Assembly: GCA_015065385.1 (NCBI GenBank)
Contig: SVQK01000128.1
Location: 188 to 64,187 of the forward strand
Direction of reading: 5' to 3'
Source of the DNA: Oscillospiraceae bacterium
GTDB taxonomy: Bacteria > Bacillota > Clostridia > Oscillospirales > CAG-272
DNA length: 64,000 nt
A model generated the notes under the pieces. That model was given only the letters and a program-made list of their open reading frames with translations, did not search any database and was not told the origin of the DNA. This document shows, in pieces, positions 1 through 17,182 of the stretch. The stretch's first letter is position 1. The number at the start of each line of letters is the position of its first letter. A program made the translations under genes and the position numbers.

Positions 1-40
1 AAGAAAGCCGCGTTTCCCTTTTAGCTTGAGATTAGTATCA
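1..40 (+). repeat. 3' terminal ~40 nt of a MITE-like element, cut by the window edge; same terminus as 17335-17373
   Basis: aagaaagccgcgtttcccttttagcttgagattagtatca matches 17335-17373 with one 1-nt indel. It ends in the shared terminus TAGTATCA. Confidence 0.5.
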
Positions 41-165
41 GATGTCATTTGGTGGATCGAATCCCGCCCGCCGCGGACAGAACCGGGATCCTGTACCCCT
101 ATCATAGCACGCTCGTGAGCGTTTGTCAATATGTTTTTATCGTTTTTCGATATCTTTTCATCTAA
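38..165. repeat. Copy 1 of a ~125-nt duplicated promoter/leader module (partner at 45504-45632)
   Basis: It shares tcagatgtca, then gccgcggacag..ccgg.atcc, then identical blocks cccctatcatagcacg (16 nt) and agcgtttgtcaatatgtttttatcgtttttcgata (35 nt). Confidence 0.8.
101..129 (-). promoter_or_regulatory. Sigma-70 type promoter reading leftward out of the window
   Basis: The minus strand reads TTGACA (124-129), a 17-nt spacer, then TGcTATGAT (101-109). Confidence 0.6.
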
Positions 166-200
166 AAAACAGGAGACAGCCCATTTTGCGAGCCGTCTCC
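164..200 (-). terminator. Intrinsic terminator of the 7-gene ABC operon
   Basis: Hairpin GGAGAC(a)GC...GC(c)GTCTCC at 172-200, followed on the minus strand by a T-run (A-run 164-169). It lies 17 nt after the stop at 217. Confidence 0.65.
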
Positions 201-216
201 CGTTTTAGGTTCTGGA

Positions 217-1278
217 TTAGTCAGCCGTCAGGCCGGAGCGTTCGATACCCTGAACGATGTATCTCTGACCGAAGAGGTAGAGGATGATCAGGGGAGTGAT
301 GATCAGAATACCGCAGGTATTCGTGATCGCGGAGGAGTACAGGGACTGACCCGCATAGTTCGTATCGAGCGACTTCGGGATCTTGATGATATCGGGAAGG
401 AGCTTGTCGCCGGCCGTCGTGTAGAACAGGTCGGTGTAGAAGTTATCCGTCCACTGCCAGCAGAAGGCGAACATGAAGACCGTGATCATCATCGTGGTGG
501 AAAGCGGGATAATGATCGAGAAGAAGGTTCTCATGATGCCGGAGCCGTCGAGGTAAGCGGACTCTTCGAGCTCATCCGGGATACCGCGGAAGAACTGTCT
601 CAGCATGAAGATGTACAGACCGTTCTTATAGGCAAGGCCCGTCAGCGACAGGATATACAGCGGCCAGTTCGAGTTGATGAAGTTGATCGAAGTCTTGCCG
701 CCTGTTACGTTGATTGCGTCAACAACACCGCCTCCTAAGAAGTTGATGATGCCGAGCACGTCGAAGTAACGGAATTTCATGAAGAGGGACAGCTGGAGGG
801 TAGCGTGGGGAACCACGAGGGTGAACAGCACGCACATGAAGAGGATGCTGTTGCCCTTGAACTTGAATTTCGCAAAGCCGTACGCGATGAACATGCAGAT
901 GAAGGTCTGGATGATAGCGCACACAAGGGACAGGATGAAGGTATTGAGAAGGGCTTCCCAGTACTTGTTGTCCTTGATGATGGCTCTGTAGATTTCAAGG
1001 TTCGGATGTTTCGGGATCAGAACCACCGTCACGTCCACGAAGTCTTCCTTGGACATGAAGGAGGAGGAGATCTTGGAGAAGAACGGGAAGAGAATTACAT
1101 AGGAAATACCGAGAAGGAGGACAAGGCGGAAGATGTAGTAGATTACCCGTTTCAGAGTGTACAGGTTGATCAGCTTCGCCTTAACCCGGTCCCAGAACGG
1201 AGTCCGGTCATCGAATTCAACCTTGATGGTGTTCTTCGTTTCTTTTTTGATTTTCGGTGCAGTCTGCGCGTTATTCAT
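217..1278 (-). CDS. Carbohydrate ABC transporter permease (MalG/LplC-like, second pair)
   Basis: Multi-TM protein with a binding-protein-dependent permease signature region (ESAYLDGSGIMRTFFSIIIP). ATG at 1278 is preceded by GGAGG. The track ORF begins 3 nt upstream at a TTG. Confidence 0.85.
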   Translation of the reverse strand: MNNAQTAPKIKKETKNTIKVEFDDRTPFWDRVKAKLINLYTLKRVIYYIFRLVLLLGISYVILFPFFSKISSSFMSKEDFVDVTVVLIPKHPNLEIYRAIIKDNKYWEALLNTFILSLVCAIIQTFICMFIAYGFAKFKFKGNSILFMCVLFTLVVPHATLQLSLFMKFRYFDVLGIINFLGGGVVDAINVTGGKTSINFINSNWPLYILSLTGLAYKNGLYIFMLRQFFRGIPDELEESAYLDGSGIMRTFFSIIIPLSTTMMITVFMFAFCWQWTDNFYTDLFYTTAGDKLLPDIIKIPKSLDTNYAGQSLYSSAITNTCGILIITPLIILYLFGQRYIVQGIERSGLTAD

Positions 1279-1296
1279 CAATCAGTTCCTCCTTTC

Positions 1297-2298
1297 TCAG
1301 TCTCTTCTCTGATAGAAGATAAATCCGCTCAGGATACCGGCCACGGCTGCCAGGATCAGGATGACGATCAGGAAGTACATCCAGGACATGGCGGAGGAGA
1401 GGACATTGCCGTCCGCCTGCTCGTAAACCGTGGAGATATAACGCATGACCGCGTTGTCGTCCGCCGTGAACGCGTCGATGATCGTGTAGATCGTATTGAC
1501 CAAGATCATCGGGGACACCATCGGCAGAGTGATCTTCCAGAAGGTTTCCCATCCGGACGCGCCGTCAATGGAGCAGGATTCGTAAATGGCGGGAGAGATG
1601 GACTGAAGACCGGAGAGGAAGATCAGCATCTGGACGCCGCAGCGGTTTACGATGTTGAAGATGTTGTTGACCATCTGCACAACGTATTCCACGATTTCGG
1701 TACCCACCATCATGTTGTCGAAGAGCCGTTCCACGTCGAGGACGGAAACGATCTGCGTCGCCTGAGATTCCTGACCGGAACCGTCGTCGATACCTGCCGA
1801 GTTCTCCATGTAGGAGCTCAGGGTGTTGGCGCGGTCGATATCGGAGATCAGACCGGTGGTCAGGATGACCGGGATGAAGAAGATCGCGCGGAACGCGGCG
1901 CGCCCGATGATCTTCTGGTTCAGGATAATTGCGATGAACAGGGAGAAGATGACGATGGACGGAATGTCGAGGATGAGCTGTCTCAGACCGGACACCAGCG
2001 TCGTGACGTAGGACGTATCGACGAGGAGCGCGTCGGAGTAGTTCTTCCAACCGACGAATTCAAGCCGGTAGCCGCCGCCCACCAGGATCTTGATCTCGTT
2101 GAAGGAGTACCGGATCGAGTCGAAGATGATGGGCAGGTAGATCAGAACGAAGCCGAGGAGGAAGGGGAGTACGAATATCCAGCCGGCTTTAGCTTTCTTG
2201 GATTCAAGAGAAGCTTTGCTCTTTTTCTTCTTGCCGGGGGCATCGACCTGAATCTTCTGTTTCTTTCCGCCTTTGCCGGCGTCAATATTTAAGTTCAT
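1297..2298 (-). CDS. Sugar ABC transporter permease (MalF/LplB-like, second pair)
   Basis: Lys-rich N-terminus followed by 6 predicted TM segments. It has a permease loop (ESCSIDGASGWETFWKITLP), a GGGGAG RBS, and a 15-nt gap to the next gene. Confidence 0.85.
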   Translation of the reverse strand: MNLNIDAGKGGKKQKIQVDAPGKKKKSKASLESKKAKAGWIFVLPFLLGFVLIYLPIIFDSIRYSFNEIKILVGGGYRLEFVGWKNYSDALLVDTSYVTTLVSGLRQLILDIPSIVIFSLFIAIILNQKIIGRAAFRAIFFIPVILTTGLISDIDRANTLSSYMENSAGIDDGSGQESQATQIVSVLDVERLFDNMMVGTEIVEYVVQMVNNIFNIVNRCGVQMLIFLSGLQSISPAIYESCSIDGASGWETFWKITLPMVSPMILVNTIYTIIDAFTADDNAVMRYISTVYEQADGNVLSSAMSWMYFLIVILILAAVAGILSGFIFYQRRD

Positions 2299-2315
2299 GA
2301 ATTCGCTCCCCTTTC

Positions 2316-5300
2316 TTAACCAATTCTTTCAAAGCTCAGAGGACCGACGTTGATCTTCTGGCCGTTGTAGTTGACAACGATTTCGAAGGAGTTGTAGTTG
2401 AGGATGAAGTTTACGCCGCCTTCGTACTCGACGCGCACCACGGAACCGCGGGTGGTCTTGTACTTGTCGAGGCCTTCCGCTTCTTCCTCTTCCTCATCGG
2501 GAACAAGTTCGCCGAATTCGTCGTAATGGAAGCCTTCGGGAGCTTCTTCCTGTTCGTCTTCGGCAGCAGCGGGAGCGGCTTCTTCTTCAGCGGGTTCTTC
2601 CACTACGGTTCCGGCCGCGGCGGCAGCTTCAGCCGCGAGACGGGCTTCCAGTCTGGCCTTGCGGTCTTCCTTTTCCTTCTTCAGCGCTTCCTCTTCCTTG
2701 ACTGCCGCGTCTTCAAGGGCCTTGGCGGCGGCGTCGGCTTCCACCTCGTCCTCGTCGGGAACGCGCTCCGCATCGAGGAACTCGTGGTCCACGATGTAGG
2801 AGGTCTGCAGATCCTTGATGGCGTTGTTCAGCGTGCTGTAGTAACGCTCAACGTCGTCTTTCCAGATCTCATAGGAAACGGAGTAATACTTGGAGAGTCT
2901 GAAATCTTCCTTCAGGTCGCTGGTATTCTGGTAGGAGAGCATGAAGTACATCGCGGCGCCGTTTTCGATGGCGTGGAGGATGCCTTCATTGATGTCGCCT
3001 TCCATGTTGATCGGCGTGCCCGCGAAGACCTTGGAGCCGTGGTAAACCATGCCGAGGAACGGGACGGACTCGCTGGCCTTCACATAAGTGGAGGAGGTCA
3101 GGGAGGCGTTCAGGATGACATCCGCGTACTTGACGGCGAAGGCGTTGCCTTCCTCGATCATGACGTGCGGGATATCGGTGCTGATGCGCTCAAGCAGATC
3201 GAGGGTGAACTGCTTGTCGTCCTCGCGGTGATAGGGCTCGTCTTCGTCGAAGTCGGAGTTCAGGTCAGTACCGAGGGTACCGACGGAAATCGAGTCGTTG
3301 CCGTAGGAGAGGTAGGTAGGTCCGAACTTGTCGTAGAGTCTTCCGAAGTACGCCGGGGAGATCGCGATGGCGAACGAACGGTCGAAGCTCTGGGTAGCGG
3401 CGTCATAGGCGCGTCTGGTCGTGTACCGGTCGTCGATAGTGCGGACCGCGTGCCATTTCAGGCTGATACCGTCGAACAGTTCCTGATTGCGGATGTACAC
3501 GAAGTCGAAGTCCGGGTACACGCTGAAATCGTTGGTCTTTGCGAAATCAACGAGGTCGTTGAATCCGCTCTTGCCGCCCACCACGCGGGTCCACTTCAGA
3601 CGGTAGGGAACCGTCGGGTTCATACCGCCGTTGGCATAGCCGGTGAGCTTGAAGTTGATGTTCTTGATTCCCTGCTCGGAGAGCTCGGAATAGATGGTCT
3701 TGATGTCGTCGAAGGTCGTCAGCGGGGTATCCACTTCCACGGGGAAGGACAGGATACGCTCGGTGGTCTTGATGGAACCGAAGGTCTCGATGAAGAGCGG
3801 GACGTCGGCCTTCACGTCGGAAGCGGTCAGCTTGGTCAGGTCGCCTCTCGCGGTCATATAATCGCGGTAAGCGGTGGCCATGCCGGTCCATTCCGCCTTG
3901 TAGCCGTCGGTACCGTTTTCCTTGGCGACTTCTTCATCCTTGAGGAAGATGTACTGGATTCTGTAGGAATCGGTGTACTTTCTCTTGGAGGTCACGGTCC
4001 AGGTTGCGGACCCGGACACGGAGATGGAGTCGGCCAGGTTGTATTCGTCGGACGGACGGGGCGTGAACATGGCGTAAACGGTGTTGTACGGGTGGAGCGA
4101 ACCGCCGCAGACCGCCATGAGGGACGCCAGGGAGTCGCCCTCGGTGATGATGGCAAGGAAGCCGTTGTTGTAGGTCTTCTCTTCCGCCGCTTCTTCGTCG
4201 CCGGAGGTCGGGACTGCGCCGGAGGGAGAACCCGGGTAAGTCGTGACCACGCCGTAGTAGGGCATTCTCATGCTTTCGGCGTGCTGGCCGGAGATCTCAT
4301 GGTACGCGTAGTCGGAACCGTAGAGCTGGCCGGACAGGTTGACGGACTGGCCCTTGAAGTCCTGGAACCGGATCAGGGCGCCGGAGCCGTCCGGGATCAC
4401 GGAATAGCCTTCGTACTCGTTGCTGCCCGCGCCGAAGAACGGGAGAACGGATACGGTCTGGAACTGGTACGCGGATTCGTCGAATTCGATACCGTTTGCG
4501 GGCAGACGGACGGCAAGACCGTCGTCGTTGAGGGTGTATTCAAGGCTGAGACGGAATCTCGGCGGGGCCGCGTCCGCACCGGTGTACTTGGTGAGTTCGT
4601 GGTCGTAGTCGAGTTCTTCGTAGGTGTACAGAGGGCAGTAGGTCTTGATGATGTTTTCAAGTTCTCTCAGCTCTCTGGCCTTGATGTCCGGGTCGCAGAC
4701 GTACACGGCCATTTCGTTCGTGATGGGGAACTTCGCCACCATTTCCAGAACGCCGCGCTCGGTCAGGGTCTCGTCGTCCTTATCCTTCAGGGTGTAGAAG
4801 GAGTTCAGCTTGTTGCGGTGCCAGTCGTAGTCGATCTGGCCGAGAATCAGTTCGTCGAAACGTTCCCGCTTGATCATACGGGGAACGAGACGGATGGTCT
4901 GCTCTTCACCCAGGATGTACTCGACGCGGATACCGTTCTTGATGTTCTTCTTGGTAATCTGGTTCCGGAGAGCGGCTTCATAATAACTGTTCATGGTTTT
5001 CTGAACGTCGTTCTCGAGATAGGTGATGATGATCTGAGAGAGAAGCTGCTGCTTCACGGCGTCGGAAATCGTCTGATAACCGGACGCGAGATCGAAGGGG
5101 TTCGAGAACACGACCTGACCGGTGGAGAGGTCCTTGACGGCGATTTCGCCGGTGAACTCCTCGTACCAGAGCTGGTAGCCGTTCTGTTCCTTGACCATGA
5201 TCATTTCGGCGAGTTTGTCTTCCGCCGTCTCATAGTTCGTGTTCAGATAATCAATCAGCGGCTCGCCGTCTTCGTTGACCTTGTCGGCATAGGCGGCTTC

Positions 5301-5372
5301 TGCGGGGACTACCAGAGAACCGAGAAACATTACCAGTGTCAGGAACGATGAAACGATTCTTTTCACTTTCAT
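2316..5372 (-). CDS. Large secreted or anchored protein of unknown function (recalled as DUF5696-like), with a C-terminal E/A/K-rich coiled segment
   Basis: 1018 aa. N-terminal signal/anchor MKVKRIVSSFLTLVMFLGSLVVPAEAAYA and a GGAG RBS. It is embedded between permease genes. The family assignment is from memory and was not searched. Confidence 0.7.
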   Translation of the reverse strand: MKVKRIVSSFLTLVMFLGSLVVPAEAAYADKVNEDGEPLIDYLNTNYETAEDKLAEMIMVKEQNGYQLWYEEFTGEIAVKDLSTGQVVFSNPFDLASGYQTISDAVKQQLLSQIIITYLENDVQKTMNSYYEAALRNQITKKNIKNGIRVEYILGEEQTIRLVPRMIKRERFDELILGQIDYDWHRNKLNSFYTLKDKDDETLTERGVLEMVAKFPITNEMAVYVCDPDIKARELRELENIIKTYCPLYTYEELDYDHELTKYTGADAAPPRFRLSLEYTLNDDGLAVRLPANGIEFDESAYQFQTVSVLPFFGAGSNEYEGYSVIPDGSGALIRFQDFKGQSVNLSGQLYGSDYAYHEISGQHAESMRMPYYGVVTTYPGSPSGAVPTSGDEEAAEEKTYNNGFLAIITEGDSLASLMAVCGGSLHPYNTVYAMFTPRPSDEYNLADSISVSGSATWTVTSKRKYTDSYRIQYIFLKDEEVAKENGTDGYKAEWTGMATAYRDYMTARGDLTKLTASDVKADVPLFIETFGSIKTTERILSFPVEVDTPLTTFDDIKTIYSELSEQGIKNINFKLTGYANGGMNPTVPYRLKWTRVVGGKSGFNDLVDFAKTNDFSVYPDFDFVYIRNQELFDGISLKWHAVRTIDDRYTTRRAYDAATQSFDRSFAIAISPAYFGRLYDKFGPTYLSYGNDSISVGTLGTDLNSDFDEDEPYHREDDKQFTLDLLERISTDIPHVMIEEGNAFAVKYADVILNASLTSSTYVKASESVPFLGMVYHGSKVFAGTPINMEGDINEGILHAIENGAAMYFMLSYQNTSDLKEDFRLSKYYSVSYEIWKDDVERYYSTLNNAIKDLQTSYIVDHEFLDAERVPDEDEVEADAAAKALEDAAVKEEEALKKEKEDRKARLEARLAAEAAAAAGTVVEEPAEEEAAPAAAEDEQEEAPEGFHYDEFGELVPDEEEEEAEGLDKYKTTRGSVVRVEYEGGVNFILNYNSFEIVVNYNGQKINVGPLSFERIG

Positions 5373-5392
5373 ATCTATTCTCCTTCTCTGTA

Positions 5393-7522
5393 CTATACGC
5401 GGTAACTGATTTCGTTCACGATGTTAGCGATGAAGCTGACGATCTTCGCCATAAGGGAGGAGAACAGCACACCGATGAACATGATAAACGCCATACCGAC
5501 AATGGTTCCGACGCAGGCCAGAATGTTCTTGCCCGCGGAGTAATCGTGCGTGACCATCATGGCGAAGAACAGGAGCAGGCCCATCCAGATATAGGCGAAG
5601 CTCTGGAGCATCGTCAGGATTCCGCCTTCGGTTCTGGTAAGGAAGTTGGAAATGATGGTGACAGGGATGATGATGAGCGGAAGGGGAGTCAGGCAGTAGC
5701 AGCAGGCGGTGAAGATATCCGCCATGGAGCCTTCGCCTTCAAACAGGGTCGTGAGACACCAGTTCGCAACGGTCCAGAGGAGCAGCGGCGCCACGACGGC
5801 GGTGATCGCGCCCATGATGTTGAAGCTGGTGGACGGACGCGGGTTGAAGATATAGCCCGTACCGATGGTGTTGTAGAAGTACGCGATGATGGTGATCAGC
5901 AGGATGACGAAGCCGGATTTGACGGAGCCCCGCTGCTCGTGCTTCAGGTCCCAGAATCCGTCGAACGGATGGAGGATGACGTGGAACGCGTAGAGCAGTT
6001 CTTCTTTCAGGCTCTTGCGGCCGACCTTCAGCGCGGTGCGCTTGTTGACCTTGCCGGCGAACCCGAAGAACTTCGCCAGACCCCAGAAGACGGCCACGAT
6101 GGCGATCGGGATGACCACGAACCACTTGTTCGCCCAGTTCTTCCGGATTTCCTTGTAGGACTCGGAATAGTTCTCGGTTTCGTAGGCGGACTTGTAGTAC
6201 TCCATGGATTCCTCGTACTTGCCCTGACGGTACAGGGACTTGCCGATCTGGATGTACGCGGAGTCGAAGTTGTTGTTTCTCTTGAGGATCTCGGTCCAGT
6301 CTTCGATGGTGTGGTCGTACTGACGGTTGTTGTCGTGCTCGAGCGCGGAGATCAGCAGGTCAGCGTACTCGGTGCGGCGGTACACCACGAAATTGTCGTT
6401 GGTCTTGTCGAGAAGCAGGATCTTGGATCCCTGGTAGGCGATGGCCTCGACGGACTGGATGTTGCCGGTCTGCTGGCCGATATCGCCGAAGACGAAGAGC
6501 AGGTCGCCGTTGTCGTCGTAGGTGAAGACCTTGGACCGCTTCTCGTCGATGATGGACCACGTTCCCTCGGGACCGGTAGCGGCGTCGATGATCTTGGACG
6601 CGCCGGTGATGTTCGCGGTGGAGAGGTTGGTGATACGGACTTCGCCGGACGGAGGATAGAAGCCGTTACGCTTCATAACGTCCGCGCCGGATGCGTTCAG
6701 CTTCTTGACCGGAGCGTAGTCGGAGCTCTTGGACTTGGAGTTGATGGCCGACTGCTGCTGGTTCTGGTCGATGGAAGAAGTCGTAACGTAGATGAAGTTG
6801 TCCTTGTCGATGGAGATGTTGTTGAACTCGGTGGAGACGTATTCCTCGCTCTGCGCTCTCTGCTCGTCGGTCTGGATCTTTCTCCAGATGATGTCGAGGG
6901 CGGAGATGGTGACCTTCTGGGCTCCGATGAAGCCGTAGAAGTCGCCGCTGTCGTTCAGAACGATGATACCCTGATAAGTGGTGGAGGACACGACGAAGAG
7001 TCGGCCGTAGTCGTCAGCCACGCACGCAACGGGCTTATAGATGGATCCCTCTTCAAAGAGGCTGGATTCCGGTTTCGGAATGATCTTGATGTAGTTGCCT
7101 TCCGTGTCGAACATGATGATACGGTTGTTGTCCGTATCGCAGACGTAGATGTTTTCCTCGTTGGCAAACACGCCGGAGGGGTTGTTGAAGCTGTCCGGCA
7201 CGCCGTGTTCGTTCGTGAAGGTGGTGATAATGAACTGGAGCTTGTAGTACCGGTCGAGGACCACGACGCGGTTGTTGGCGGCGTCCACGATGTAGACCTT
7301 CTGATCGGGACCTACGAACAGGTCGCGGGGATCGTCGATCGCGGTTCCAAGACCCATATAGGCAGAATCAACGATCAGGTCCGGCACATACGCCGCGGGG
7401 GAGGTCAGCACCTGTCCCTGCGCGGAGTAGGTGTAGGTCGCGTAGGGAGCGGCCGAGGCGGTGACCGCCAGTACCGAGAGGAGTGTCAGCGATGCCAGAA
7501 GCACGCTAAGAAATTTTTTCAT
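5393..7522 (-). CDS. Secreted NHL-repeat beta-propeller fused to a C-terminal Yip1-type multi-TM domain
   Basis: 709 aa. Signal peptide ...AVTASAA. Repeated NHL-like blades (VYIVDAANNRVVVLD, IYVCDTDNNRIIMFD, LFVVSS.., IYVTTSS..). A TPR-like stretch (GKSLYRQGKYEESMEYYKSAYE). Then about 5 TM helices beginning at a Yip1-like motif (HPFDGFWDLK). Confidence 0.7.
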   Translation of the reverse strand: MKKFLSVLLASLTLLSVLAVTASAAPYATYTYSAQGQVLTSPAAYVPDLIVDSAYMGLGTAIDDPRDLFVGPDQKVYIVDAANNRVVVLDRYYKLQFIITTFTNEHGVPDSFNNPSGVFANEENIYVCDTDNNRIIMFDTEGNYIKIIPKPESSLFEEGSIYKPVACVADDYGRLFVVSSTTYQGIIVLNDSGDFYGFIGAQKVTISALDIIWRKIQTDEQRAQSEEYVSTEFNNISIDKDNFIYVTTSSIDQNQQQSAINSKSKSSDYAPVKKLNASGADVMKRNGFYPPSGEVRITNLSTANITGASKIIDAATGPEGTWSIIDEKRSKVFTYDDNGDLLFVFGDIGQQTGNIQSVEAIAYQGSKILLLDKTNDNFVVYRRTEYADLLISALEHDNNRQYDHTIEDWTEILKRNNNFDSAYIQIGKSLYRQGKYEESMEYYKSAYETENYSESYKEIRKNWANKWFVVIPIAIVAVFWGLAKFFGFAGKVNKRTALKVGRKSLKEELLYAFHVILHPFDGFWDLKHEQRGSVKSGFVILLITIIAYFYNTIGTGYIFNPRPSTSFNIMGAITAVVAPLLLWTVANWCLTTLFEGEGSMADIFTACCYCLTPLPLIIIPVTIISNFLTRTEGGILTMLQSFAYIWMGLLLFFAMMVTHDYSAGKNILACVGTIVGMAFIMFIGVLFSSLMAKIVSFIANIVNEISYRV

Positions 7523-7532
7523 TCTGACCTCC

Positions 7533-8411
7533 TTAGTCTTTCATGCCGCTGGAGCCCATCGTCTCGATGATGTTGGACTGGGAGATAACGAAGACCAGGA
7601 TCGGAACGATCATCATGATGACGGTAGCGGCTGCCGATGCGCCGGAACGGGCGATCGTGCCGTTGGTAATCTGGGAGATCGCGTAGTTCAGGGTTTTCAG
7701 CTGTTCGGAATAGATGAAGGTGGAAGCGCCGGAGTTCCAGAGACCCTGGAAGGAGTAGATGATGAGGGTCAGCCACGCGGGCTTGACCATGGGCATTGCG
7801 ATGGACCAGAACGTGCGGAGCTCGGACGCGCCGTCCAGACGGGCGGACTCCAGGACTTCCGTGGACACGTTGGATTCCATGAACTGCTTCATCAGGTACA
7901 GACCGAGCGTGGAGCACCACGCGGGAACGATGATGGCGAGGTAGGTATCGATCCAGCCCAGCACGGACAGGGTGATGAAGTTGACGATACCGGTAACGGT
8001 CGCCGTGAACATCAGGGATTTCTGGATGATCCAGAAGAAGCCCTTTGCTCCGGGGAAGTCGATCTTCGCAAGAGCGTACGCGCAGAGGGACGAGAGAACG
8101 AGGTTACCGAAGGTACCGCCCACGGAGATGAGAACCGTGTTGAAAATGTACCGGGAGAACGGGACCCACGAGTCGCCCATGAGGTTGAAGAGGTCTGCGA
8201 AGTTATCGAGAGTCGGGTGCGTCACATAGAAGCGCGGAGGGAAGTAGAACAGCTCGTTCAGAGGCTTGAGCGACTGAATGATGGTGTAATACATCGGAAG
8301 GAACATCACGATTCCGAAGAGCGTCAGAACGAAGGTGATACCCGCATCGCCGCCGGCCGACCTGTTCAGAACAACTTCGTGATTTCCTCTTGTTCTTAAT
8401 TTTCTGGCCAT
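7533..8411 (-). CDS. Carbohydrate ABC transporter permease (MalG-like, first pair)
   Basis: 292 aa, 6 TM, with permease loop ESARLDGASELRTFWSIAMP. There is a 2-nt gap to the upstream permease. Confidence 0.85.
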   Translation of the reverse strand: MARKLRTRGNHEVVLNRSAGGDAGITFVLTLFGIVMFLPMYYTIIQSLKPLNELFYFPPRFYVTHPTLDNFADLFNLMGDSWVPFSRYIFNTVLISVGGTFGNLVLSSLCAYALAKIDFPGAKGFFWIIQKSLMFTATVTGIVNFITLSVLGWIDTYLAIIVPAWCSTLGLYLMKQFMESNVSTEVLESARLDGASELRTFWSIAMPMVKPAWLTLIIYSFQGLWNSGASTFIYSEQLKTLNYAISQITNGTIARSGASAAATVIMMIVPILVFVISQSNIIETMGSSGMKD

Positions 8412-8413
8412 GA

Positions 8414-9355
8414 TTAATCTCCCAACTTAGAGATGAGCTTGGTGACGACTACGTTCATGCCGATCATCATGAGGAAGAGCAGGAACGAAATGGCGGAAGC
8501 GTAGCCGACCTCCCAGCGGTTGTTCTGATATTCTTCAAGGTGATGCTGCAGGGTGTATGCCACATAATCGACGGAAGGGTTGCCGGCCAGCGCCGTTACG
8601 ATGCCGCCGAAGTTGAAGGAACCGGTGATGGACATGATCGCGCCGAACATCAGCTGCGGCTTCATGGAAGGCAGGGTGATGTACCAGAGCTCCTGCCACC
8701 GGTTCTTGATACCGTCGATCGCGCCCGCTTCGAACAGAGACTTGTTGATGCCCTGCAAACCTGCGATAAAGGCGAGGAACGAGGTACCGAGGGATGTCCA
8801 GAGCGCGACGGCGATACATAGCGGCATAACGAACTTCGCGTTCTGGAAGAAGAGGATCGGGGAGTCTATGACGCCCATCTGGAGGAGGAAACCGTTCATC
8901 AGGCCGTAAGAGTCGGACGAGAAGATCGTGGTCCAGATCAGGTAGACGTTTCCGGCGATGGACGGCGCGTAGAAGACCAGCGTGACCACCGCGCGGATCC
9001 TCGGAGGCAGCTCGTTGATGAACCAAGCCACCACGAAGGAGATGATGTAGGCCGAGGGGCCCGTGACCGCCGCGAAGATCAGGGTGTTCTTCAGAGCGGT
9101 GATAAAGAGGTCGTCGTCCAAAAACAGCGTGACGTAGTTATCGAGGAAGACGAACTTCGGCCACTGGAGCATGTTGAAGGACGTGAGGCTCAGCACGAGG
9201 GACAGGGCGACGGGGATGATGGTGAAGATGAAGAAGAGAATCATGAAGGGGGCGATCATGAAGTACGCCGTCTTGTTTCTCTTGATCAGGAACCACGTCC
9301 GCTCGCTCTTCGTCATCTCGTGGAGAGGCTTTACCTGTTTTTCTTTTTTAGCCAT
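8414..9355 (-). CDS. Sugar ABC transporter permease (MalF-like, first pair)
   Basis: 313 aa, 6 TM, with permease loop EAGAIDGIKNRWQELWYITLP. Confidence 0.85.
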   Translation of the reverse strand: MAKKEKQVKPLHEMTKSERTWFLIKRNKTAYFMIAPFMILFFIFTIIPVALSLVLSLTSFNMLQWPKFVFLDNYVTLFLDDDLFITALKNTLIFAAVTGPSAYIISFVVAWFINELPPRIRAVVTLVFYAPSIAGNVYLIWTTIFSSDSYGLMNGFLLQMGVIDSPILFFQNAKFVMPLCIAVALWTSLGTSFLAFIAGLQGINKSLFEAGAIDGIKNRWQELWYITLPSMKPQLMFGAIMSITGSFNFGGIVTALAGNPSVDYVAYTLQHHLEEYQNNRWEVGYASAISFLLFLMMIGMNVVVTKLISKLGD

Positions 9356-9388
9356 GTCTCTCTCCTTAATCGAATTTCATTGCGGAAA

Positions 9389-12300
9389 TCAGCTGCGGTA
9401 CGATTCGAGCGCGTCAGCAGCCTCGTTCAGGTACGCCGCGATCTTGGTCAGGGCTTCGCTGCCGCCGAGACCTGACGCCGCCGCCCGGAGTCCTTCTACG
9501 GAAGGATTGCCGATGGCTTCGGAGGCCGCCTGCACAGCCGCGCTGCTCTTCGCGCCGTCGTCGAGGTCGTCGATCATCTCGGCCGCCTGATCCATACGCT
9601 TGGAGGCGAGGGTCTGACCGATCTCAAGGGTTTCGAGGTCGAACTCGGTTCTCTTACGGTTGATTTCCTTGTTGATCGTATTGATGTACGACAGGAGGGA
9701 GTCAACCGGGTCGGCGTGGTTGTTGTACGCGTTCAGGAACGCGAAGTTGGTATAACGGGCGAGGATGTAGGAGCCGGGATACTGCGTGATGGCGATGGTG
9801 GTATCCATCTGCTTCATCAGCTGGCCGTACTCACGGGAAGTCCAGGGCAGCTCCTCGAGGGCTTCCTGGTTTGCCGTCGCGTTCTTTGCGGCGGGACCGA
9901 GGATAGCGACCATTTCGTTGGAGTAGTCAACCTGATACTTGGTGTCGGTGTACCAGCACATGTACTCCCACGCGGCTTCGATATCCTTCACGCCGGACAT
10001 CATAACCAGAGCGGAGGTACCGGACATCGCGGTGTTATCGATCGTACCGTCGTCGCGAACGAATCCGGGCACGGGACCGAATTCCCAGAGGCCTGCAAGC
10101 TCGGTTGCGAAGATGATGATATTGTTATAGGAAGTGTAGGGCTGGATGCAGAGCGGCATTTCACCGGTTCTGAAACGGTTTGCGAAGTCGTACGCGGTGG
10201 GCAGCGAATACTGGGTGAACATGTTGCACATGGTCTCGAAGGCCTCGAGGGAGATATTCGCGTCGAGGTTGATTCTCATGCCGTCGTCCGCCCAGAGGTG
10301 ACCGCCCAGCTGGTACATGTACATCTGATAGTCCTGAGAGAGACCGATGGTCATGTTGTTGAACTGGAGCACCGGGATCAGGGAGAGGACTTCGTCCCAG
10401 GTCTTCGGAGGCTCAACGCCCAGCTCGGAGAGGATGTCGGTCCGGTAGAACATCATGTTCCAGGACTGCGTATCCGGCAGGCCGTAAACCTTGCCGTACA
10501 GCGTCAGCGGGATCATCGCCGCCTCGGTGAAGCGGGTCTTCACATCGTGGTAGTTGGCGAAGATGCTCTTCAGTTCGGCGTTGTCATGCTTCGTGATCTC
10601 GTCCTTGCCTTCGCCTTCATACGCTTCGGGGTTCACGGCGACGACGGCGGAACGGATCGCGTACTGGATCGGGTCAACGCCGGTGCCGGGCAGGGCGATA
10701 TCGGGTCCGACGCCCGCAAGCACGGAGGGCAGCAGGGTACCGCCGGCGACGAGCTTCAGGGACGCGTCGATGCCGGTGGTGGGACCGAAGTCGTTGTCCA
10801 TCAGGTTACGGCAGATCTGAGCCTGGTCGCGGTTCGCGGTGATCCAGACGTCAACCTTCCGCTCGGACTTCTGACCGTCGGTGGTGGCGCCGAGGGAGTT
10901 ATAGTCGGTGAAGAAGGAGGCAAAGAACTGTCTCAGCTCATACCAGAAGGCCTGGAAGAAGTTGGCTTCCGCCTTTGCCTTCGGAGCGCCGGCGGGCTGA
11001 ATGTCGATCCAGTCCAGCTCGAGCGGCTGGTTCTTGACGTCGGACACCCAGGAACCGAGGGTACCGATCTGGGACTTCAGCTGGCCGAGGTTCTTTGCGA
11101 TCTCGTCCTCGTCCGTACCCATCTTCCGGAGCAGTCTTGCGATCTGTTCCAACGTGGCGGAGTTGGAGGACTTGACGTTGGACATGTTCTCGATATAGGA
11201 GATAACGTCCGTCAGGTTAATGGACTGCACGACCATGTCGGTGACGACATCGGGAAGGACGCGTCCGAAACCGTAGTCGCGGTAGGAGTCCGGAGAAGCG
11301 CCGGTGAGCTTCAGGATGGAGAGGTAGTCGTTGTTGATGGAGTTCAGGATGGCGGCGACTTCTCTCACCACATTGCCCATTTCGCCGAGGGTGACCTCAA
11401 GGCGGATGGTGTGATGACCGGGCTCAAGGTAGAACTGGAAGGTATCCGCGCCGTCGTTGGCGGACTCGACCTGCCAGTTGGCGTCGTAGTTGAATTTAAG
11501 GTAGTTGGCTTCCTTAAACGGTACCTCGCCGTCCAGAAGGATCTTGCGGGAGGTGTACATACCCTGCAGTTCGTTCTGGCGGTAACGGAACACCACTTCG
11601 TACAGGCCCGCGGAGGTGACGTCGAATCCGTATTCGACCCACTGGGTGGCGGTCTGCCACTTCTCGGAACCGATGGTGTTCAGCTTGATGCGGGAGGCGT
11701 CCTGAGGCTCCGTGATAGCGGATTTACGGTCATAAATCGGATACACGGTAAAGTCGGAGGTTCTGTCCGGAGTTTCGGCGGCGATGTGGATCTTTTCCGC
11801 TGTGGCAGGGGACTTGCCCGCAATGTACTCTTCGTATGTGGGGAGCTCTTCGTAGGGGAAGAGGGTGATGTTCTGGATCACGACGTCTTCGCGGACCGCG
11901 GTCAGTGCGATCGTGTTGACGCCCTTTTCAAAGTAAAACTCAAAGGGTTCGGCGAAATAGCTGTTCGGGTCGATCAGCGTGTATTCCTGCCACTCGTGCT
12001 GGACGGAGCTCACCGGTCTCAGCTCGTTCCCGTTGGAGTCCACCTCAAAGCGTCCGTCCGTATAGGCGTTGGTCCAGATCTTCTTCAAGACAAGGTCGCG
12101 GACCTCGGCGAACGGGAGCACGCCGTTGATGTAGAAGCTGCGCTCGATGGAGTTCGTCTTGTTGGTGACGGAGCAATAGTCGAGCTTGATGGCGTAGCGG
12201 CCGTCAGCCGGAACGTTGATGCTCCAGGTCACGGTACCGTCGTCGGCGATTTTCAGGGAATCGCCGCTCTTTCCGTTGTAGTTCGAAACGACTTCGACTG

Positions 12301-12559
12301 CGGCGGTGGTGGCGGACTTGTCGTAATCCGTCGCCTTGATCGAAACGGTCCCCGATCCCTTGGGCGCGCTCGCGTATTCTTCGCGGTAATCGGCGTAGGA
12401 ATACGAGATCAGGGATTCGCTGATTTCCTGAAGCGTCGTCTTCTGAGGCGCGTCGCCTTCCACTTCTTCCGCGGCGTGGACGGCCGCAGGGAGAGTTGAG
12501 GCAAACGTGAGAAGCGACAGGGCCAGAGAAAGCAGCCGTTTGCTTGTGGATTTTCTCAT
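9389..12559 (-). CDS. Giant extracellular solute-binding protein with two N-terminal CBM-like beta-sandwich modules
   Basis: Start refined to MRKSTSKRLLSLALSLLTFASTLPAAVHA (ATG 12559, AGGAGGAAGG RBS). The ORF part upstream of it is Arg/Gly-rich and looks like junk. The N-terminal ~450 aa has CBM6/35-like repeats (DGRYAIKLDY..., AGLYEVVFRY...). The C-terminal ~500 aa is family-1 SBP-like. Confidence 0.8.
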   Translation of the reverse strand: MRKSTSKRLLSLALSLLTFASTLPAAVHAAEEVEGDAPQKTTLQEISESLISYSYADYREEYASAPKGSGTVSIKATDYDKSATTAAVEVVSNYNGKSGDSLKIADDGTVTWSINVPADGRYAIKLDYCSVTNKTNSIERSFYINGVLPFAEVRDLVLKKIWTNAYTDGRFEVDSNGNELRPVSSVQHEWQEYTLIDPNSYFAEPFEFYFEKGVNTIALTAVREDVVIQNITLFPYEELPTYEEYIAGKSPATAEKIHIAAETPDRTSDFTVYPIYDRKSAITEPQDASRIKLNTIGSEKWQTATQWVEYGFDVTSAGLYEVVFRYRQNELQGMYTSRKILLDGEVPFKEANYLKFNYDANWQVESANDGADTFQFYLEPGHHTIRLEVTLGEMGNVVREVAAILNSINNDYLSILKLTGASPDSYRDYGFGRVLPDVVTDMVVQSINLTDVISYIENMSNVKSSNSATLEQIARLLRKMGTDEDEIAKNLGQLKSQIGTLGSWVSDVKNQPLELDWIDIQPAGAPKAKAEANFFQAFWYELRQFFASFFTDYNSLGATTDGQKSERKVDVWITANRDQAQICRNLMDNDFGPTTGIDASLKLVAGGTLLPSVLAGVGPDIALPGTGVDPIQYAIRSAVVAVNPEAYEGEGKDEITKHDNAELKSIFANYHDVKTRFTEAAMIPLTLYGKVYGLPDTQSWNMMFYRTDILSELGVEPPKTWDEVLSLIPVLQFNNMTIGLSQDYQMYMYQLGGHLWADDGMRINLDANISLEAFETMCNMFTQYSLPTAYDFANRFRTGEMPLCIQPYTSYNNIIIFATELAGLWEFGPVPGFVRDDGTIDNTAMSGTSALVMMSGVKDIEAAWEYMCWYTDTKYQVDYSNEMVAILGPAAKNATANQEALEELPWTSREYGQLMKQMDTTIAITQYPGSYILARYTNFAFLNAYNNHADPVDSLLSYINTINKEINRKRTEFDLETLEIGQTLASKRMDQAAEMIDDLDDGAKSSAAVQAASEAIGNPSVEGLRAAASGLGGSEALTKIAAYLNEAADALESYRS

Positions 12560-12812
12560 AGAACCTTCCTCCTGCAAAATTCTGGGCGGAATCCGCTGAC
12601 CGACGGACCGCCCGTCCCCGTACCGGGGGGCAGAATGGCCTTCATGCGGTGTGCTTCTCCCCTGAAGGGCAGCTGTTCCGCCGTCCGGCACGTTATTCGG
12701 AGACCCGTTTGACAGCAACCCTGCCAACTTGAACGGCAAACGCCGCGGATTTCTGTCAAAGAGTCCCCGCAGATCGGCAGAGGTTCCCCTCTTCCGATTT
12801 GTATATGGCCAT

Positions 12813-12841
12813 ATCATAGCATAATAACCCAAAAAAGTCAA
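12813..12841 (-). promoter_or_regulatory. Promoter of the ABC operon (proximal)
   Basis: The minus strand reads TTGACT, a 17-nt spacer, then TGcTATGAT. This leaves a ~250-nt structured leader before the ATG at 12559. Confidence 0.6.
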
Positions 12842-13353
12842 GCGTGAACGCCGCACACTTGTGAAACCTGAATCCCGCGGGACGACCTTCCCCGCCCCGC
12901 CGTTTTCCGCCCCGTCCGGATTCCGATGGGCAGGGTCCCGTTTTCCCCCGGATCCACCTCCGCAGCACCGACCGTGCGTAATTTATTTTCACGCGTCTTG
13001 TTGCTTTTACGAAACTTTTTACTGGCAATTTGTTTCTTTTTCGCAATTTTCAGCATCGTATTCGGAAACGGAAACGGGAAAAGTAAATTTCTGTTACGGT
13101 TACGGTTGTCGCTCCCCTGAAAGAAATGTGTTGGGGCGGTGAAGGCGGAACGGGTGCTTTTGTGGTTTTTCAACAATTTTTCGTCTGTTTTTTCTATATA
13201 TAAGCAAGTTGCACAAAGTTTCGGGAGAGGGGATTTCCGCGCCTCCGGGGAGAGCGTTTTCACACTCCGCGCGCTGGTTCCATGGGAGGCGGGCGGCTGA
13301 CTCCCCCTTTCCCCCGATCTCCAGGAAAGACCGGTCTGATCTGCTTTCCTATT

Positions 13354-13382
13354 ATTATATTCCTTCTTCCCCCTTCCGTCAA
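13354..13382 (-). promoter_or_regulatory. Distal promoter firing into the long non-coding region upstream of the ABC operon
   Basis: The minus strand reads TTGACG, a 17-nt spacer, then TATAAT. It sits directly downstream of the terminator at 13396-13441. Confidence 0.5.
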
Positions 13383-13395
13383 GCGGAATGCAGCG

Positions 13396-13441
13396 AAAAA
13401 AGGACGCAAGTCCCGCGCTTCACAGCCTTGGGACCGCGTCC
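13396..13441 (-). terminator. Intrinsic terminator of the 13533-15107 gene
   Basis: Nested hairpin GGACGC..GTCCC....GGGAC.GCGTCC, followed on the minus strand by TTTTTT (A-run 13396-13401). Confidence 0.65.
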
Positions 13442-13532
13442 GATTTGATTTCTGTTCTTTAATACCGTCTGATTCTGCCGACGAGCCGAGTCGGGCTTCC
13501 GCTCGCTGCCAAATGAGGGACACAGGGGGCGA

Positions 13533-15107
13533 TCAGCCTCTTCCGCCTCCGCCCCAGAATCCGCCGAAGCCTCCGAAGCCTCCGCCGAACCCGCCGCCGA
13601 AGCCACCTCCGTGTCCGAATCCGCCGCCCATCATGGACTGGGGGATTTCGTCCACTTCCACGCCGTTGACGATGATCGTGCCGCCGTTATAGGCCGCGGA
13701 TCCGTCGTAATCGAAGGAGGACATGCCCGCCGTGACGATGATCGTGCCGCCGTTGACGGTGATATCGCCGTTGGAGTCGATGCCGTCCGTATCGCCGGGG
13801 CCGACTTCCACGGTCAGGTCGCCGCCGTTGATCTCGATCATGGGCCTGCTGTACGCGCTGCTCTTCCGGCTCGCGTTGATCCCGTCGTCGGAGGCGTACA
13901 TGCCGATCGTGCCGCCGTTGATCTGAACGAAGGTCCCTTCGATCCCCTCGGAGGCGCTGATGTTCAGGATTCCGTCGTCGATCTGCACGAAGGTGGTCCC
14001 CTGAATCGCGTCGGACTTCGCGTTGATCGTCCATGTGCCTCCGCCGATCCAGATCCAGCCGAGGGTGTCGTCGTCGTCGTTCTCGCAGTGGAGGCCGTCT
14101 TTGGAGGAGGTGATATCGAACGTCCCGGCGCAGGCGGCGATCGAATCGTTGGCCTCCATGGAATCGAGCGCGGAGACGATCGTCCACGACCCGCCCGTGA
14201 TCTTGAGATCGTCCTTCGCCGTGATGCCGTTGCCGTACGCGGACGAAACGGTCAGGCTCCCGAGGCCGTTCAAGACGAGATCGTCCTTCGAGAAGATCAC
14301 GGCGTCGGTGTTGACCCCGTTTTCCGCATCCTTTGCAAAGGCGCCCGTGACCGCGAGGGTGTTCTCCGTTCCCGCGGCGGTGGTGACGAACACCTTGTCC
14401 GCCGAGAGCACATAGATCGCCGGGAAACTGCTGTTCGTGACGCTGACGCCCGCCAGCACGAGCTGAACCTTCTCTTCCCCGTCCGCATTGATCCGCACGG
14501 TGCAGTCCGACGCGGTCCCGGAGAGGACATAAACGCCCGCCTGATTGAGTTCGATCACGGCGTTGTCGGAGAGCGCCACGGCGGAGGCCTCGGAAAGATC
14601 GGCGGTCTGGGTGAGATCCCGCTCGGTGAAGATCTCGACGCCGGTTAGGTTGCCGTACGCGTAAGTGCTGTATTCCGCGGTCACAGCGGTCGTATTCCCC
14701 TGCTTGAGAGAGGAAAGCGCCGCAGCTGCCGCAGCTTCATTCTCCGCCGATACGCTTCCGCCCCGCTCCAATTCTGTATCGGAGTTCGAATCATCGTCAG
14801 CCGCGTCGGGAGCCGGAGCTGCCTGAGTCGGGCCGTCTTCCTTCGGCGCGTTCTCCTCGTTGTCCTCGTCAGCGCTGTTCCGCCCGTTCTCATAGGCGGA
14901 GATGATTTCTTCAAAGGTCCTGCGTTCGGTTTCCGCGATATCCTCATACGACGCGGGTTCGGTTTCGACCACGGACGTCCCGTTTTCCACGGATCCCGCT
15001 CTTGTTTCAGAGGCGGTCCGCAGTCCCAGCGCGGCGCATCCGGTGCTTGCAAGCGTGAGGGCGGCCGCCATGAAAACCGCCGCGGCCTTTCTGATTTCGT
15101 TCTTCAT
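13533..15107 (-). CDS. Lipoprotein with a beta-helix carbohydrate-binding domain (Cthe_2159-like) and a Gly/Phe-rich C-terminal tail
   Basis: Lipobox LASTGC, then an acidic linker. Repetitive beta-helix-like turns follow (LVLNGLGSLTVSS..GNGITAKDDLKITGGSWTI...). The tail is GGGFGHGGGFGGGFGGGFGGFGGFWGGGGRG. Confidence 0.65.
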   Translation of the reverse strand: MKNEIRKAAAVFMAAALTLASTGCAALGLRTASETRAGSVENGTSVVETEPASYEDIAETERRTFEEIISAYENGRNSADEDNEENAPKEDGPTQAAPAPDAADDDSNSDTELERGGSVSAENEAAAAAALSSLKQGNTTAVTAEYSTYAYGNLTGVEIFTERDLTQTADLSEASAVALSDNAVIELNQAGVYVLSGTASDCTVRINADGEEKVQLVLAGVSVTNSSFPAIYVLSADKVFVTTAAGTENTLAVTGAFAKDAENGVNTDAVIFSKDDLVLNGLGSLTVSSAYGNGITAKDDLKITGGSWTIVSALDSMEANDSIAACAGTFDITSSKDGLHCENDDDDTLGWIWIGGGTWTINAKSDAIQGTTFVQIDDGILNISASEGIEGTFVQINGGTIGMYASDDGINASRKSSAYSRPMIEINGGDLTVEVGPGDTDGIDSNGDITVNGGTIIVTAGMSSFDYDGSAAYNGGTIIVNGVEVDEIPQSMMGGGFGHGGGFGGGFGGGFGGFGGFWGGGGRG

Positions 15108-15341
15108 TGATTCCGGCTCCTTTCGCTGTGCCGCGTGTTCTGTCTTCTGTATTCCGTATTCCGTCTTCTGCCTTCTGTCTTTTCACGGCTCCATTATACC
15201 CCCCTTCCCTGTTGGCTTCTCGTCCGGAATGTGACGGTTTTCCGAAAAAACGGTGATTCGGAATTGATGAACGCGGCGTGAATTTCCGGCAAATTGACCG
15301 TTCCGGTCCTCCGAAACCGCCGATCTTCTCCAATCCGACAC

Positions 15342-15370
15342 TTGACAGCCTCTCCGGTTTGGTGTATGAT
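15342..15370 (+). promoter_or_regulatory. Promoter of the orphan SBP gene
   Basis: TTGACA (15342-15347), a 17-nt spacer, then TATGAT (15365-15370). Confidence 0.6.
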
Positions 15371-15414
15371 TGTGTACAGTCTACTCAATTTATTGAATGG
15401 AAAGGTTTTTCCCC

Positions 15415-16914: not shown

Positions 16915-16944
16915 ATGATTCCGGCGTATAACCGGACGCGCGAA

Positions 16945-16977
16945 AAGGGGTTCTTCCGAAAGAAGGCCCCTTTTTCT
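16945..16977 (+). terminator. Intrinsic terminator after the SBP gene
   Basis: AAGGGGttCTTC-cgaaa-GAAGgCCCCTT followed by TTTTTC. Confidence 0.65.
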
Positions 16978-17006
16978 CATCCCGTCCGGATCCCGCGGAC
17001 TTCCGA

Positions 17007-17035
17007 TTGCATTCCCTCCCCCGCTGTGGTATAAT
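17007..17035 (+). promoter_or_regulatory. Promoter of the 17388 gene, giving a ~350-nt leader
   Basis: TTGCAT (17007-17012), a 17-nt spacer, then TATAAT (17030-17035). Confidence 0.6.
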
Positions 17036-17166
17036 GACGCCGGAGCCGCGGGAGCGAACAACAGCCTTCCCTTCTGCGGTGAATAATACAAGTCATACTA
17101 TTCACAGTCAAAAAGCAAAACTTCATGGGTTTTGATCGCTCCATGTAGGGTGCGAATCGCCGTGCG

Positions 17167-17182
17167 GCTCAACTTGTTGAGC
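17167..17182. promoter_or_regulatory. Perfect 16-bp palindrome GCTCAACTTGTTGAGC (site 1), candidate operator
   Basis: An identical copy lies 138 bp downstream at 17305-17320. Both are in the leader of the 17388 gene. Confidence 0.4.

Follow-up and report, generated by a model that had tools for sequence, protein, structure and literature searches.

In Bacillus subtilis, AraNPQ, GanSPQ and MdxEFG are MsmX-dependent sugar importers of the CUT1 type, and for CUT1 systems of Firmicutes an ATPase that is encoded in trans and shared is the norm. In Gram-positive polysaccharide utilisation loci and the Sus systems of Bacteroidetes, the genes for binding glycans at the surface, for a surface enzyme and for a dedicated importer are grouped. 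Here, we describe a cassette of seven genes from an Oscillospiraceae bacterium, encoded on a stretch of 64,000 nt of contig SVQK01000128.1 (called the window in the following). The cassette encodes a predicted CUT1 importer of the ATP-binding cassette (ABC) type and is a putative Gram-positive glycan locus with two uncharacterised and strictly linked components, i.e., a membrane protein with NHL, TPR and Yip1 domains and a secreted protein with the domain DUF5696. The reading that we favour, with a confidence somewhat better than even, is that it represents an ABC import apparatus for carbohydrates that is conserved in Bacillota, consists of two modules and acts in glycan capture, cleavage and import with two translocators.

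With the MsmX-dependent CUT1 importers the cassette shares a MalE-type substrate-binding protein (SBP), MalF/MalG-type permeases with EAA loops and an ATPase encoded outside of the operon that is presumably shared. It differs from these in having two permease pairs per operon, in an SBP of ~1050 aa that carries two repeats resembling carbohydrate-binding modules (CBMs) and is not a lipoprotein, and in the NHL-TPR-Yip1 and DUF5696 proteins that are always inserted between the permease pairs. As in the Gram-positive polysaccharide utilisation loci and Sus systems, predicted functions in glycan binding, surface catalysis and import are encoded together. However, the core cassette contains neither a regulator nor a recognised CAZy enzyme, it has two translocators and it is fixed, while the carbohydrate-active enzymes (CAZymes) attached to it vary by lineage. 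For the cyclodextrin (Cym) and cycloisomaltooligosaccharide systems, PMC13084667 describes a secreted transglycosylase combined with a dedicated ABC importer. Set beside that description, a secreted glycoside-active enzyme could here also turn a polymer into a private oligosaccharide for an SBP-dependent importer, but nothing points to cyclic products and the enzyme family and the accessory proteins differ from those of that account.

All seven open reading frames (ORFs) are encoded on the minus strand between positions 217 and 12559. In the order of transcription, the genes and signals of the cassette are:

12813-12841, minus strand, sigma-70-type promoter, TTGACT, 17 nt, TG-n-TATGAT (promoter scan; conservation in other species)
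12560-12812, minus strand, 5' leader of ~250 nt (direct sequence reading)
9389-12559, minus strand, giant SBP, 1056 aa, start ATG behind a GGAGGAAGG ribosome-binding site
8414-9355, minus strand, permease F1, MalF/UgpA-type with EAA loop (Pfam, NCBIfam, alignment)
7533-8411, minus strand, permease G1, MalG/UgpE-type with EAA loop (Pfam, NCBIfam, alignment)
5393-7522, minus strand, NHL-TPR-Yip1 protein, 709 aa (Pfam, hydropathy, AlphaFold2 model, Foldseek)
2316-5372, minus strand, secreted DUF5696 protein, 1018 aa (Pfam PF18952, AlphaFold2 model, Foldseek)
1297-2298, minus strand, permease F2, MalF-type with EAA loop (Pfam, NCBIfam, alignment)
217-1281, minus strand, permease G2, MalG-type with EAA loop (Pfam, NCBIfam, alignment)
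164-206, minus strand, intrinsic terminator (fold energy, U-run)

The G+C content at third codon positions is ~0.8 in all seven ORFs, showing that all of them are real genes, and the gaps between them amount to 33, 2, 10, 20, 17 and 15 nt from the SBP gene to G2. The domain calls of the earlier note on this DNA for SBP, permeases, NHL, Yip1 and DUF5696 are supported by Pfam. In the reading favoured here, the genes fall into two modules, module A with the secreted 1056-aa binding protein and the permease pair F1/G1, and module B, the invariant core, with the NHL/TPR/Yip1 membrane protein, the secreted DUF5696 protein and the permease pair F2/G2.

Conservation of the gene order in Bacillota

One genome per GTDB species was scanned, which yielded 199 species with a DUF5696 relative, and the best 80 of these were examined. 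A metagenome scan seeded on divergent members gave 80 further loci, for which the gene-order lists were used in counting where the distance cut-off missed an adjacent gene. All of the best 80 species genomes come from Clostridia of gut or rumen that are uncultured; rumen metagenome-assembled genomes (MAGs) of 'Ruminococcus sp.' are closest, with 87-92% identity. By tblastn, the order SBP, F1, G1, NHL-TPR-Yip1, DUF5696, F2, G2 was found on one strand in every adequately flanked genome locus, with the Yip1 gene directly upstream of DUF5696 in 72/72 loci with enough flank and SBP-F1-G1 upstream in all 60 loci whose upstream flank measures 8 kb or more. The median identities across the genome loci are 51% for the SBP, 68% for F1, 74% for G1, 62% for Yip1, 52% for DUF5696, 69% for F2 and 66% for G2. 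The metagenome loci gave the same picture: Yip1/NHL is located upstream of DUF5696 in 59/59 loci with enough flank, F2 downstream of it in 58/58, followed by G2 in 55, and module A is found upstream in 39/42.

The cassette is also present in two cultured organisms. Their DUF5696 proteins, WP_110042929 in Paenibacillus and WP_073386913 in Butyrivibrio, are only 25-27% identical to that of the window. Paenibacillus cellulosilyticus shows the same order, and so does Butyrivibrio fibrisolvens D1 pNP243, where separate genes encode NHL and Yip1 and where a GH43 gene (GH: glycoside hydrolase family) and a histidine kinase/response regulator pair are encoded upstream and two ordinary SBP genes downstream. 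As the order recurs in ~160 independent loci, the arrangement is not due to chance. The earlier note mentioned Yip1-family and DUF5696 genes beside sugar permeases in other Firmicutes and raised the question of their co-occurrence with dual permease pairs; the former was verified by the same order in these ~160 loci, and dual permease pairs, NHL-Yip1 and DUF5696 do co-occur across gut, rumen and soil Firmicutes.

A few loci deviate from the common order. L151 and L153 carry the two modules in reverse, with Yip1-DUF5696-F2-G2 (module B) ahead of the giant-SBP module. In L133, L139, L140, L147 and L148 an ORF of ~440-470 aa comes after G2 of module B, and the flank that is available shows no module A. 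Pfam identifies this ORF as an ordinary SBP in L133 and L139, where CAZyme genes follow further on (GH130 and DUF1861, and RG-lyase-like and GH28, respectively). These variants identify Yip1-DUF5696-F2-G2 as the invariant unit and the giant-SBP module as its near-constant companion. The assumption made at the outset that one SBP serves two permease pairs is probably wrong in general, as in several lineages module B has an ordinary SBP of its own behind it.

Such separable and permuted modules (B before A in L151 and L153; module B with an SBP or an SBP-size ORF but with module A absent from the available flank in the five loci named above), together with an identity of only 25% between the permease pairs, would also be expected for two ordinary and independent ABC sugar importers that are merely adjacent and share neither a complex nor a substrate, one formed by giant SBP-F1-G1 and the other by Yip1-DUF5696-F2-G2 with an own SBP encoded elsewhere. 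This is unlikely, however, given that module A is found directly upstream of module B and on the same strand in 60/60 genome and 39/42 metagenome loci, that the order holds in both Clostridia and Bacilli, and that gaps of 2-33 nt, one promoter and one terminator join the modules in the window. Gene order that is conserved so deeply usually reflects co-function.

A complete cassette (L004, JAGARL010000319.1, proteins P0032 and P0308) is deposited under the archaeon 'Methanocorpusculum sp.'; most likely this is a mis-binned contig in a MAG.

The giant binding protein and the four permeases

The CUT1 family (TC 3.A.1.1) is defined by a MalE-type SBP, which is present here, and by MalF- plus MalG-type permeases with EAA loops, which are present twice. 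The giant SBP matches Pfam SBP_bac_1 (PF01547; E 6.9e-15, residues 662-876) and its MalE-type domain covers residues ~580-1000 and is preceded by a helical linker. The top PDB matches are sugar SBPs, the best by sequence being a maltodextrin-binding protein (E 1.7e-6). The N-terminal half, which is kept in the Butyrivibrio and Paenibacillus homologues, contains two homologous modules of ~170 aa within residues ~60-430, detected as an internal duplication (E 4e-4). The N-terminus shows matches to CBM_35 and Golvesin_C (E 7e-4 and 2.5e-5, respectively), both under the gathering score. The CBM label given to this protein in the earlier note is supported by these sub-threshold matches and by the internal duplication, and is weaker than the other domain calls.

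The giant SBP has a signal peptide but no lipobox. With a rough regular expression, lipobox-like motifs were found in 3/105 giant SBPs, in 8/147 DUF5696 proteins and in 4/130 NHL-Yip1 proteins, whereas the orphan SBP g9 encoded outside of the operon and a Cthe_2159-like neighbour (both listed below) have clear lipoboxes, unlike the secreted proteins of the cassette. The near-absence of lipoboxes in the giant SBPs is unusual among Gram-positive SBPs.

All four permeases contain the Pfam domain BPD_transp_1 (E 7.8e-11, 2.3e-9, 3.6e-8 and 3.9e-9), the nearest NCBIfam models are UgpA, UgpE and MalG, and the EAA coupling loops are visible in the alignments of all four. The two pairs are distant from each other, F1 and F2 as well as G1 and G2 being 25% identical, and F2 has a longer external loop than F1.

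The DUF5696 protein

The domain DUF5696 (PF18952) was matched with 481.6 bits at a cut-off of 25.6 bits (E 4.8e-144). The family comprises 4306 clusters at 50% identity with E <= 0.001 and 1706 with E <= 1e-30, and a literature search found no paper on DUF5696 or PF18952. The AlphaFold2 model (predicted local distance difference test, pLDDT, 64; predicted template modelling score, pTM, 0.61) shows a beta-sandwich followed by a (beta/alpha)8 body resembling GH129, GH101 and GH31. In Foldseek the best match is the 3,6-anhydro-D-galactosidase ZgGH129 from Zobellia (PDB 5opq/8rzk) with E 5e-21 and a target-normalised TM score of 0.63; Bifidobacterium bifidum NagBb (PDB 5wzn) was matched with E 1e-15, the GH129 matches range from E 5e-21 to 4e-14, and alpha-glycosidases of families GH31, GH36 and GH97 come next. 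The fold is that of retaining alpha-glycosidases. The N-terminal beta-sandwich and the (beta/alpha)8 barrel that characterise the GH129 fold are thus both seen in the model, at the pLDDT of 64 stated above.

The sequence relation to GH129 is far weaker. A profile of 61 diverse DUF5696 relatives, which are as low as ~26% identical to the window protein, matches NagBb with E 0.011 in the alpha1-beta2 region of the barrel, and the matches to GH129 members altogether range from E 0.011 to 0.13 over 67-120 residues, which falls short of family-level similarity. The identities in the Foldseek alignments with DUF5696 are ~11-12%, and no GH101 or other GH domain of Pfam was found in the protein at E <= 0.01. 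Four GH129-like fragments, found with a 67-aa stretch of NagBb as seed, carry both GH101 and DUF5696 Pfam matches. Unlike GH129, DUF5696 furthermore has additional sequence at the N-terminus, a helical insertion that varies and a beta module at the C-terminus, and its gene invariably sits between those of a Yip1 protein and a permease pair. As there is no significant sequence match to a characterised GH129 enzyme, DUF5696 is not filed as a member of GH129; judged from the model, it is GH129-like in its fold and probably catalytic.

Residues that are invariant in the 61 relatives include D328, D354, R716, N743, H778, N789 and E803, and D442 and D707 are near-invariant, a pattern that suggests an active site. 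The invariant and near-invariant carboxylates could not be aligned to the catalytic residues of NagBb, which we take to be D435 and E478. The enzyme-like body is followed by an acidic helical insertion at residues ~874-968 (~95 aa) and by a conserved C-terminal beta module of ~50 aa with the invariant N992. In some relatives (P0181, P0159 and P0132) the helical insertion, which is rich in Ala, Glu and Lys, reaches 900-1500 aa, which gives it the look of a stalk that varies in length.

An improbable alternative is that DUF5696 is a non-catalytic surface protein derived from a glycosidase with a glycan-binding or structural role, and that the system does no more than capture and import ready-made oligosaccharides. 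It would account for catalytic residues that are not assignable, for the marginal sequence similarity to GH129 (E 0.011) and for the 900-1500 aa of stalk-like helical sequence that some relatives have inserted. It is difficult to reconcile with carboxylates, His, Arg and Asn residues that are invariant across 61 relatives, as is typical of an active site, and with best fold matches that are active enzymes.

The long DUF5696 relatives (1358-2545 aa) were also considered as Rosetta-stone fusions and discarded as such, as they carry no Yip1, NHL, SBP or CBM domains of Pfam; their extra length is made up of the helical Ala/Glu/Lys-rich insertion or of an unrecognised N-terminal extension.

The NHL-TPR-Yip1 protein

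The second component between the permease pairs matches Pfam Yip1 (PF04893) with E 1e-14 over profile positions 1-170 of 173, NHL with E 2.9e-6 and TPR with E 8e-5. Behind a signal peptide lies a six-bladed NHL propeller into which ~110 aa are inserted. TPR helices, a single transmembrane helix and a basic loop in the cytoplasm then lead on to the five-helix Yip1 domain, which covers residues 532-708 by hydropathy and by the helices of an AlphaFold2 model that was built on 35 sequences with at least 75% identity. Among the papers listed by the literature search, none contained the term 'YIP1 family protein'.

An anchor-less Gram-positive SBP needs a tether, which makes the propeller/TPR ectodomain on Yip1 the obvious candidate. 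The NHL/TPR-Yip1 protein may act as a scaffold that holds DUF5696 and the giant SBP at the membrane. PMC4887032, citing Yamada 2012, describes YknW from Bacillus, a member of the Yip1 family, as modulating the assembly of the ABC pump YknXYZ. The likeness to the cassette consists in a bacterial Yip1-family membrane protein that is encoded together with an ABC transporter (PMC4887032). Differences are that YknXYZ is an exporter of the MacAB type while the cassette encodes a type I importer, and that the Yip1 domain bears a large NHL-TPR ectodomain here. The YknW precedent and the strict linkage to DUF5696-F2-G2 support a putative role of Yip1 as ABC-transporter assembly factor.

The ATPase

No called gene in the 64-kb window encodes an ABC signature motif and tblastn with E. 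coli MalK gave no match there, so the MalK/MsmX-type ATPase of a CUT1 system is missing from the window, as had been noticed before. An ATPase gene just outside of the cassette was considered and rejected: an ABC ATPase is encoded within 10 kb in only 4/80 genome loci, in all four on the opposite strand, and the strand and an identity to MalK of only 26-34% make it unlikely that these are of the MsmX type. In other lineages the homologous cassette is immediately preceded by a ugpC/msmX-like ATPase gene (Paenibacillus cellulosilyticus, L082) or the SBP gene by an MsmX-like one (nine metagenome loci), which fits the shared MsmX-type ATPase that the earlier note had offered as explanation. The ATPase of the window system would hence be of MsmX/UgpC type and supplied in trans, and in Paenibacillus-like lineages in cis.

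Proposed mechanism

In the import apparatus that we favour, the giant SBP, through its CBM-like repeats, and DUF5696 would capture an extracellular glycan, which DUF5696 would cut or transglycosylate into oligosaccharides at the membrane surface. The Yip1 protein would use its NHL/TPR ectodomain to keep both anchor-less proteins at the membrane, comparable to YknW. The giant SBP would feed F1/G1. F2/G2 would receive the products from ordinary lipoprotein SBPs, whose genes come right behind G2 in other lineages and lie at other sites in this genome (g9 family), or possibly straight from the enzyme. An MsmX/UgpC-type ATPase encoded outside of the window would power both translocators. The description of the region as a polysaccharide capture and uptake machine, given in the earlier note, gains support because DUF5696 has a glycosidase fold of the GH129/GH31 type, and CAZyme genes continue the operon elsewhere; the single physical machine, the catalysis and the substrate are the inferred parts of it.

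Several observations weigh against this proposal. The nucleophile and the acid/base of DUF5696 could not be mapped, hhalign to the E. coli GH31 enzyme YicI giving a probability of 1.7%, and D703, the candidate nearest to beta4 of the barrel, is conserved in just 37/61 relatives. The DUF5696 model is only moderately confident (pLDDT 64), and the motifs of highest conservation lie in its weakest loops. The NHL propeller matches generic NHL domains only (in Foldseek TRIM71, Brat and the PknD sensor; best E 1.9e-10), and no gene fusion joining Yip1 to DUF5696 or to the permeases was found. No regulator is adjacent to the cassette in the nearest 80 genomes and the flanks are housekeeping genes, an uncommon setting for a glycan locus that is induced by its substrate. 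A physical complex of the parts is purely what we infer.

A bolder version, which we regard as doubtful, is that DUF5696 founds a new family of glycoside hydrolases or transglycosylases working only in a Yip1-anchored NHL/TPR supercomplex, which would dock the enzyme and the CBM-bearing, anchor-less SBP onto the two translocators, so that the products pass straight into the cell. This would constitute a Gram-positive counterpart of the 'selfish' Sus-type uptake, and the insertions, which range from 90 to 1500 aa, would span the wall as stalks of adjustable length.

The very large DUF5696 family shows the same arrangement with a Yip1 protein and a permease pair in every locus examined in gut, rumen and soil Bacillota. 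If the favoured reading is true, DUF5696 defines a new glycosidase family, bacterial Yip1 proteins gain a role in ABC importers, and a widespread route of glycan acquisition exists in poorly cultured Oscillospiraceae and Lachnospiraceae. With Butyrivibrio fibrisolvens D1 and Paenibacillus cellulosilyticus KACC 14175 there are cultured carriers, which makes the proposed role directly testable.

Genomic surroundings and substrate

Outside of the operon, the following features of the window are of relevance:

13533-15107, Cthe_2159-like beta-helix lipoprotein, a neighbour
15397-16914, plus strand, orphan lipoprotein SBP g9 with lipobox LPAFAGC
17355-18797, weak beta-helix protein, a neighbour
19307-19380, minus strand, tRNA gene (Rfam, 66 bits) between the beta-helix-like and the GH78-like gene
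19615-21717, GH78-like protein, a neighbour
56252-57721, minus strand, second g9 paralogue, adjoining a GH39-like gene (54784-56154) and an alpha/beta-hydrolase gene

The flanks in the nearest 80 genomes are mostly housekeeping genes, encoding a NifS-like protein, a ROK glucokinase, an alanyl-tRNA synthetase and an indolepyruvate oxidoreductase. The Cthe_2159-like, beta-helix and GH78-like genes, which the earlier note had counted with the orphan SBP among the parts of the uptake machine, were therefore rejected as such, the Cthe_2159-like gene being kept only in the closest relative (L001). The g9 family is the part of that claim that held, as it is the only neighbour recurring beside the cassette: g9 shares 22% identity (E 3e-10) with the SBP that Butyrivibrio encodes directly after G2, and g9-like genes follow G2 in five MAG loci. 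The protein g9 and its paralogue at 56252-57721 are 27% identical, have no Pfam SBP match and no adjoining permease genes. With relatives encoded directly after G2 elsewhere, both paralogues may share the translocators of the cassette, and from sequence comparison g9 is tentatively regarded as the partner of one translocator.

The genes continuing the operon in divergent loci were examined by Pfam on 76 non-redundant operon-like downstream proteins. SBP_bac_1 is the commonest family with 11 members, followed by GH38, GH130, LacI-type regulators and GFO/IDH/MocA oxidoreductases with three members each, GH43 and GH144-like proteins with two each, and single members of PL11 (PL: polysaccharide lyase family), GH28, GH127 and a sulfatase. 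Since many different CAZyme families are found downstream, no single substrate can be named and the assumption of one was rejected. The core cassette looks like a fixed platform that is joined to lineage-specific glycan enzymes, and the substrate probably differs between lineages. Compared to a polysaccharide utilisation locus, the transporter is present and DUF5696 is the sole enzyme candidate, while regulators and CAZymes are attached in other lineages; in the window no regulator is encoded adjacent to the cassette.

The housekeeping flanks and the lack of an adjacent regulator in the 80 closest genomes, as well as a near-consensus promoter that is conserved across species, would be in line with a cassette that recycles the own envelope or exopolysaccharide of the cell as a housekeeping function instead of foraging for dietary glycans. 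We consider this very unlikely, as in other lineages the operon comes with LacI-type regulators or with a histidine kinase and a response regulator, as well as with CAZymes for plant and fungal glycans (GH43, GH28, PL11, GH130, GH38 and GH127), and as members of the family occur in organisms of soil, rumen and gut whose envelopes differ.

Transcription signals

Read from its sequence signals, the cassette is one operon, the seven genes forming a single predicted transcription unit. The spacing of 2-33 nt, the one promoter and the one terminator reported in the earlier note were borne out by the coordinates, the promoter scan and RNA folding. A stretch of ~45 nt containing the promoter (CGCTTGACTTTTTTGTGCGnTTATGCTATGATTATGGCATATAAAT) is nearly identical in 10 other species (L001, L009, L011, L018, L021, L023, L025, L026, L030 and L031), while the DNA around it has diverged. 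The terminator at ~164-206 has a folding energy of -27.7 kcal/mol (z = -5.1) and a U-run after the hairpin. Three internal junctions were folded; hairpins are absent from all of them and each has a ribosome-binding site. A terminator behind the SBP gene that sets the stoichiometry was rejected, as no hairpin is found at that junction.

The 5' leader is conserved in other loci only at the end with the ribosome-binding site and Rfam gave no hit for it at E <= 1. As the tRNA is the sole Rfam match across positions 1-20000, the idea of a riboswitch or leader RNA was rejected. Within window positions 12786-12845 (minus strand), an imperfect inverted repeat, TATGCTAT-GAT-TATGGCATA, spans the -10 region of the promoter; as read from the sequence, it could be a candidate operator for a repressor. 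A terminator-like hairpin at 12839-12861 (minus strand) overlaps the -35 region of the same promoter.

Just past the operon terminator, a near-consensus promoter-like site is found at 129-101 (minus strand) with 11/12 matches and an upstream TG. It is followed by a GC-rich leader without an Rfam match (window 1-130, minus strand) that runs off the edge of the window, and both presumably serve the next gene. At the other end, a second strong promoter-like site at 13354-13382 (minus strand, 11/12 matches) and a terminator-like site at 13401-13418 (minus strand) are located right behind the Cthe_2159-like gene. The operon may thus see some read-through or have a longer leader transcript.

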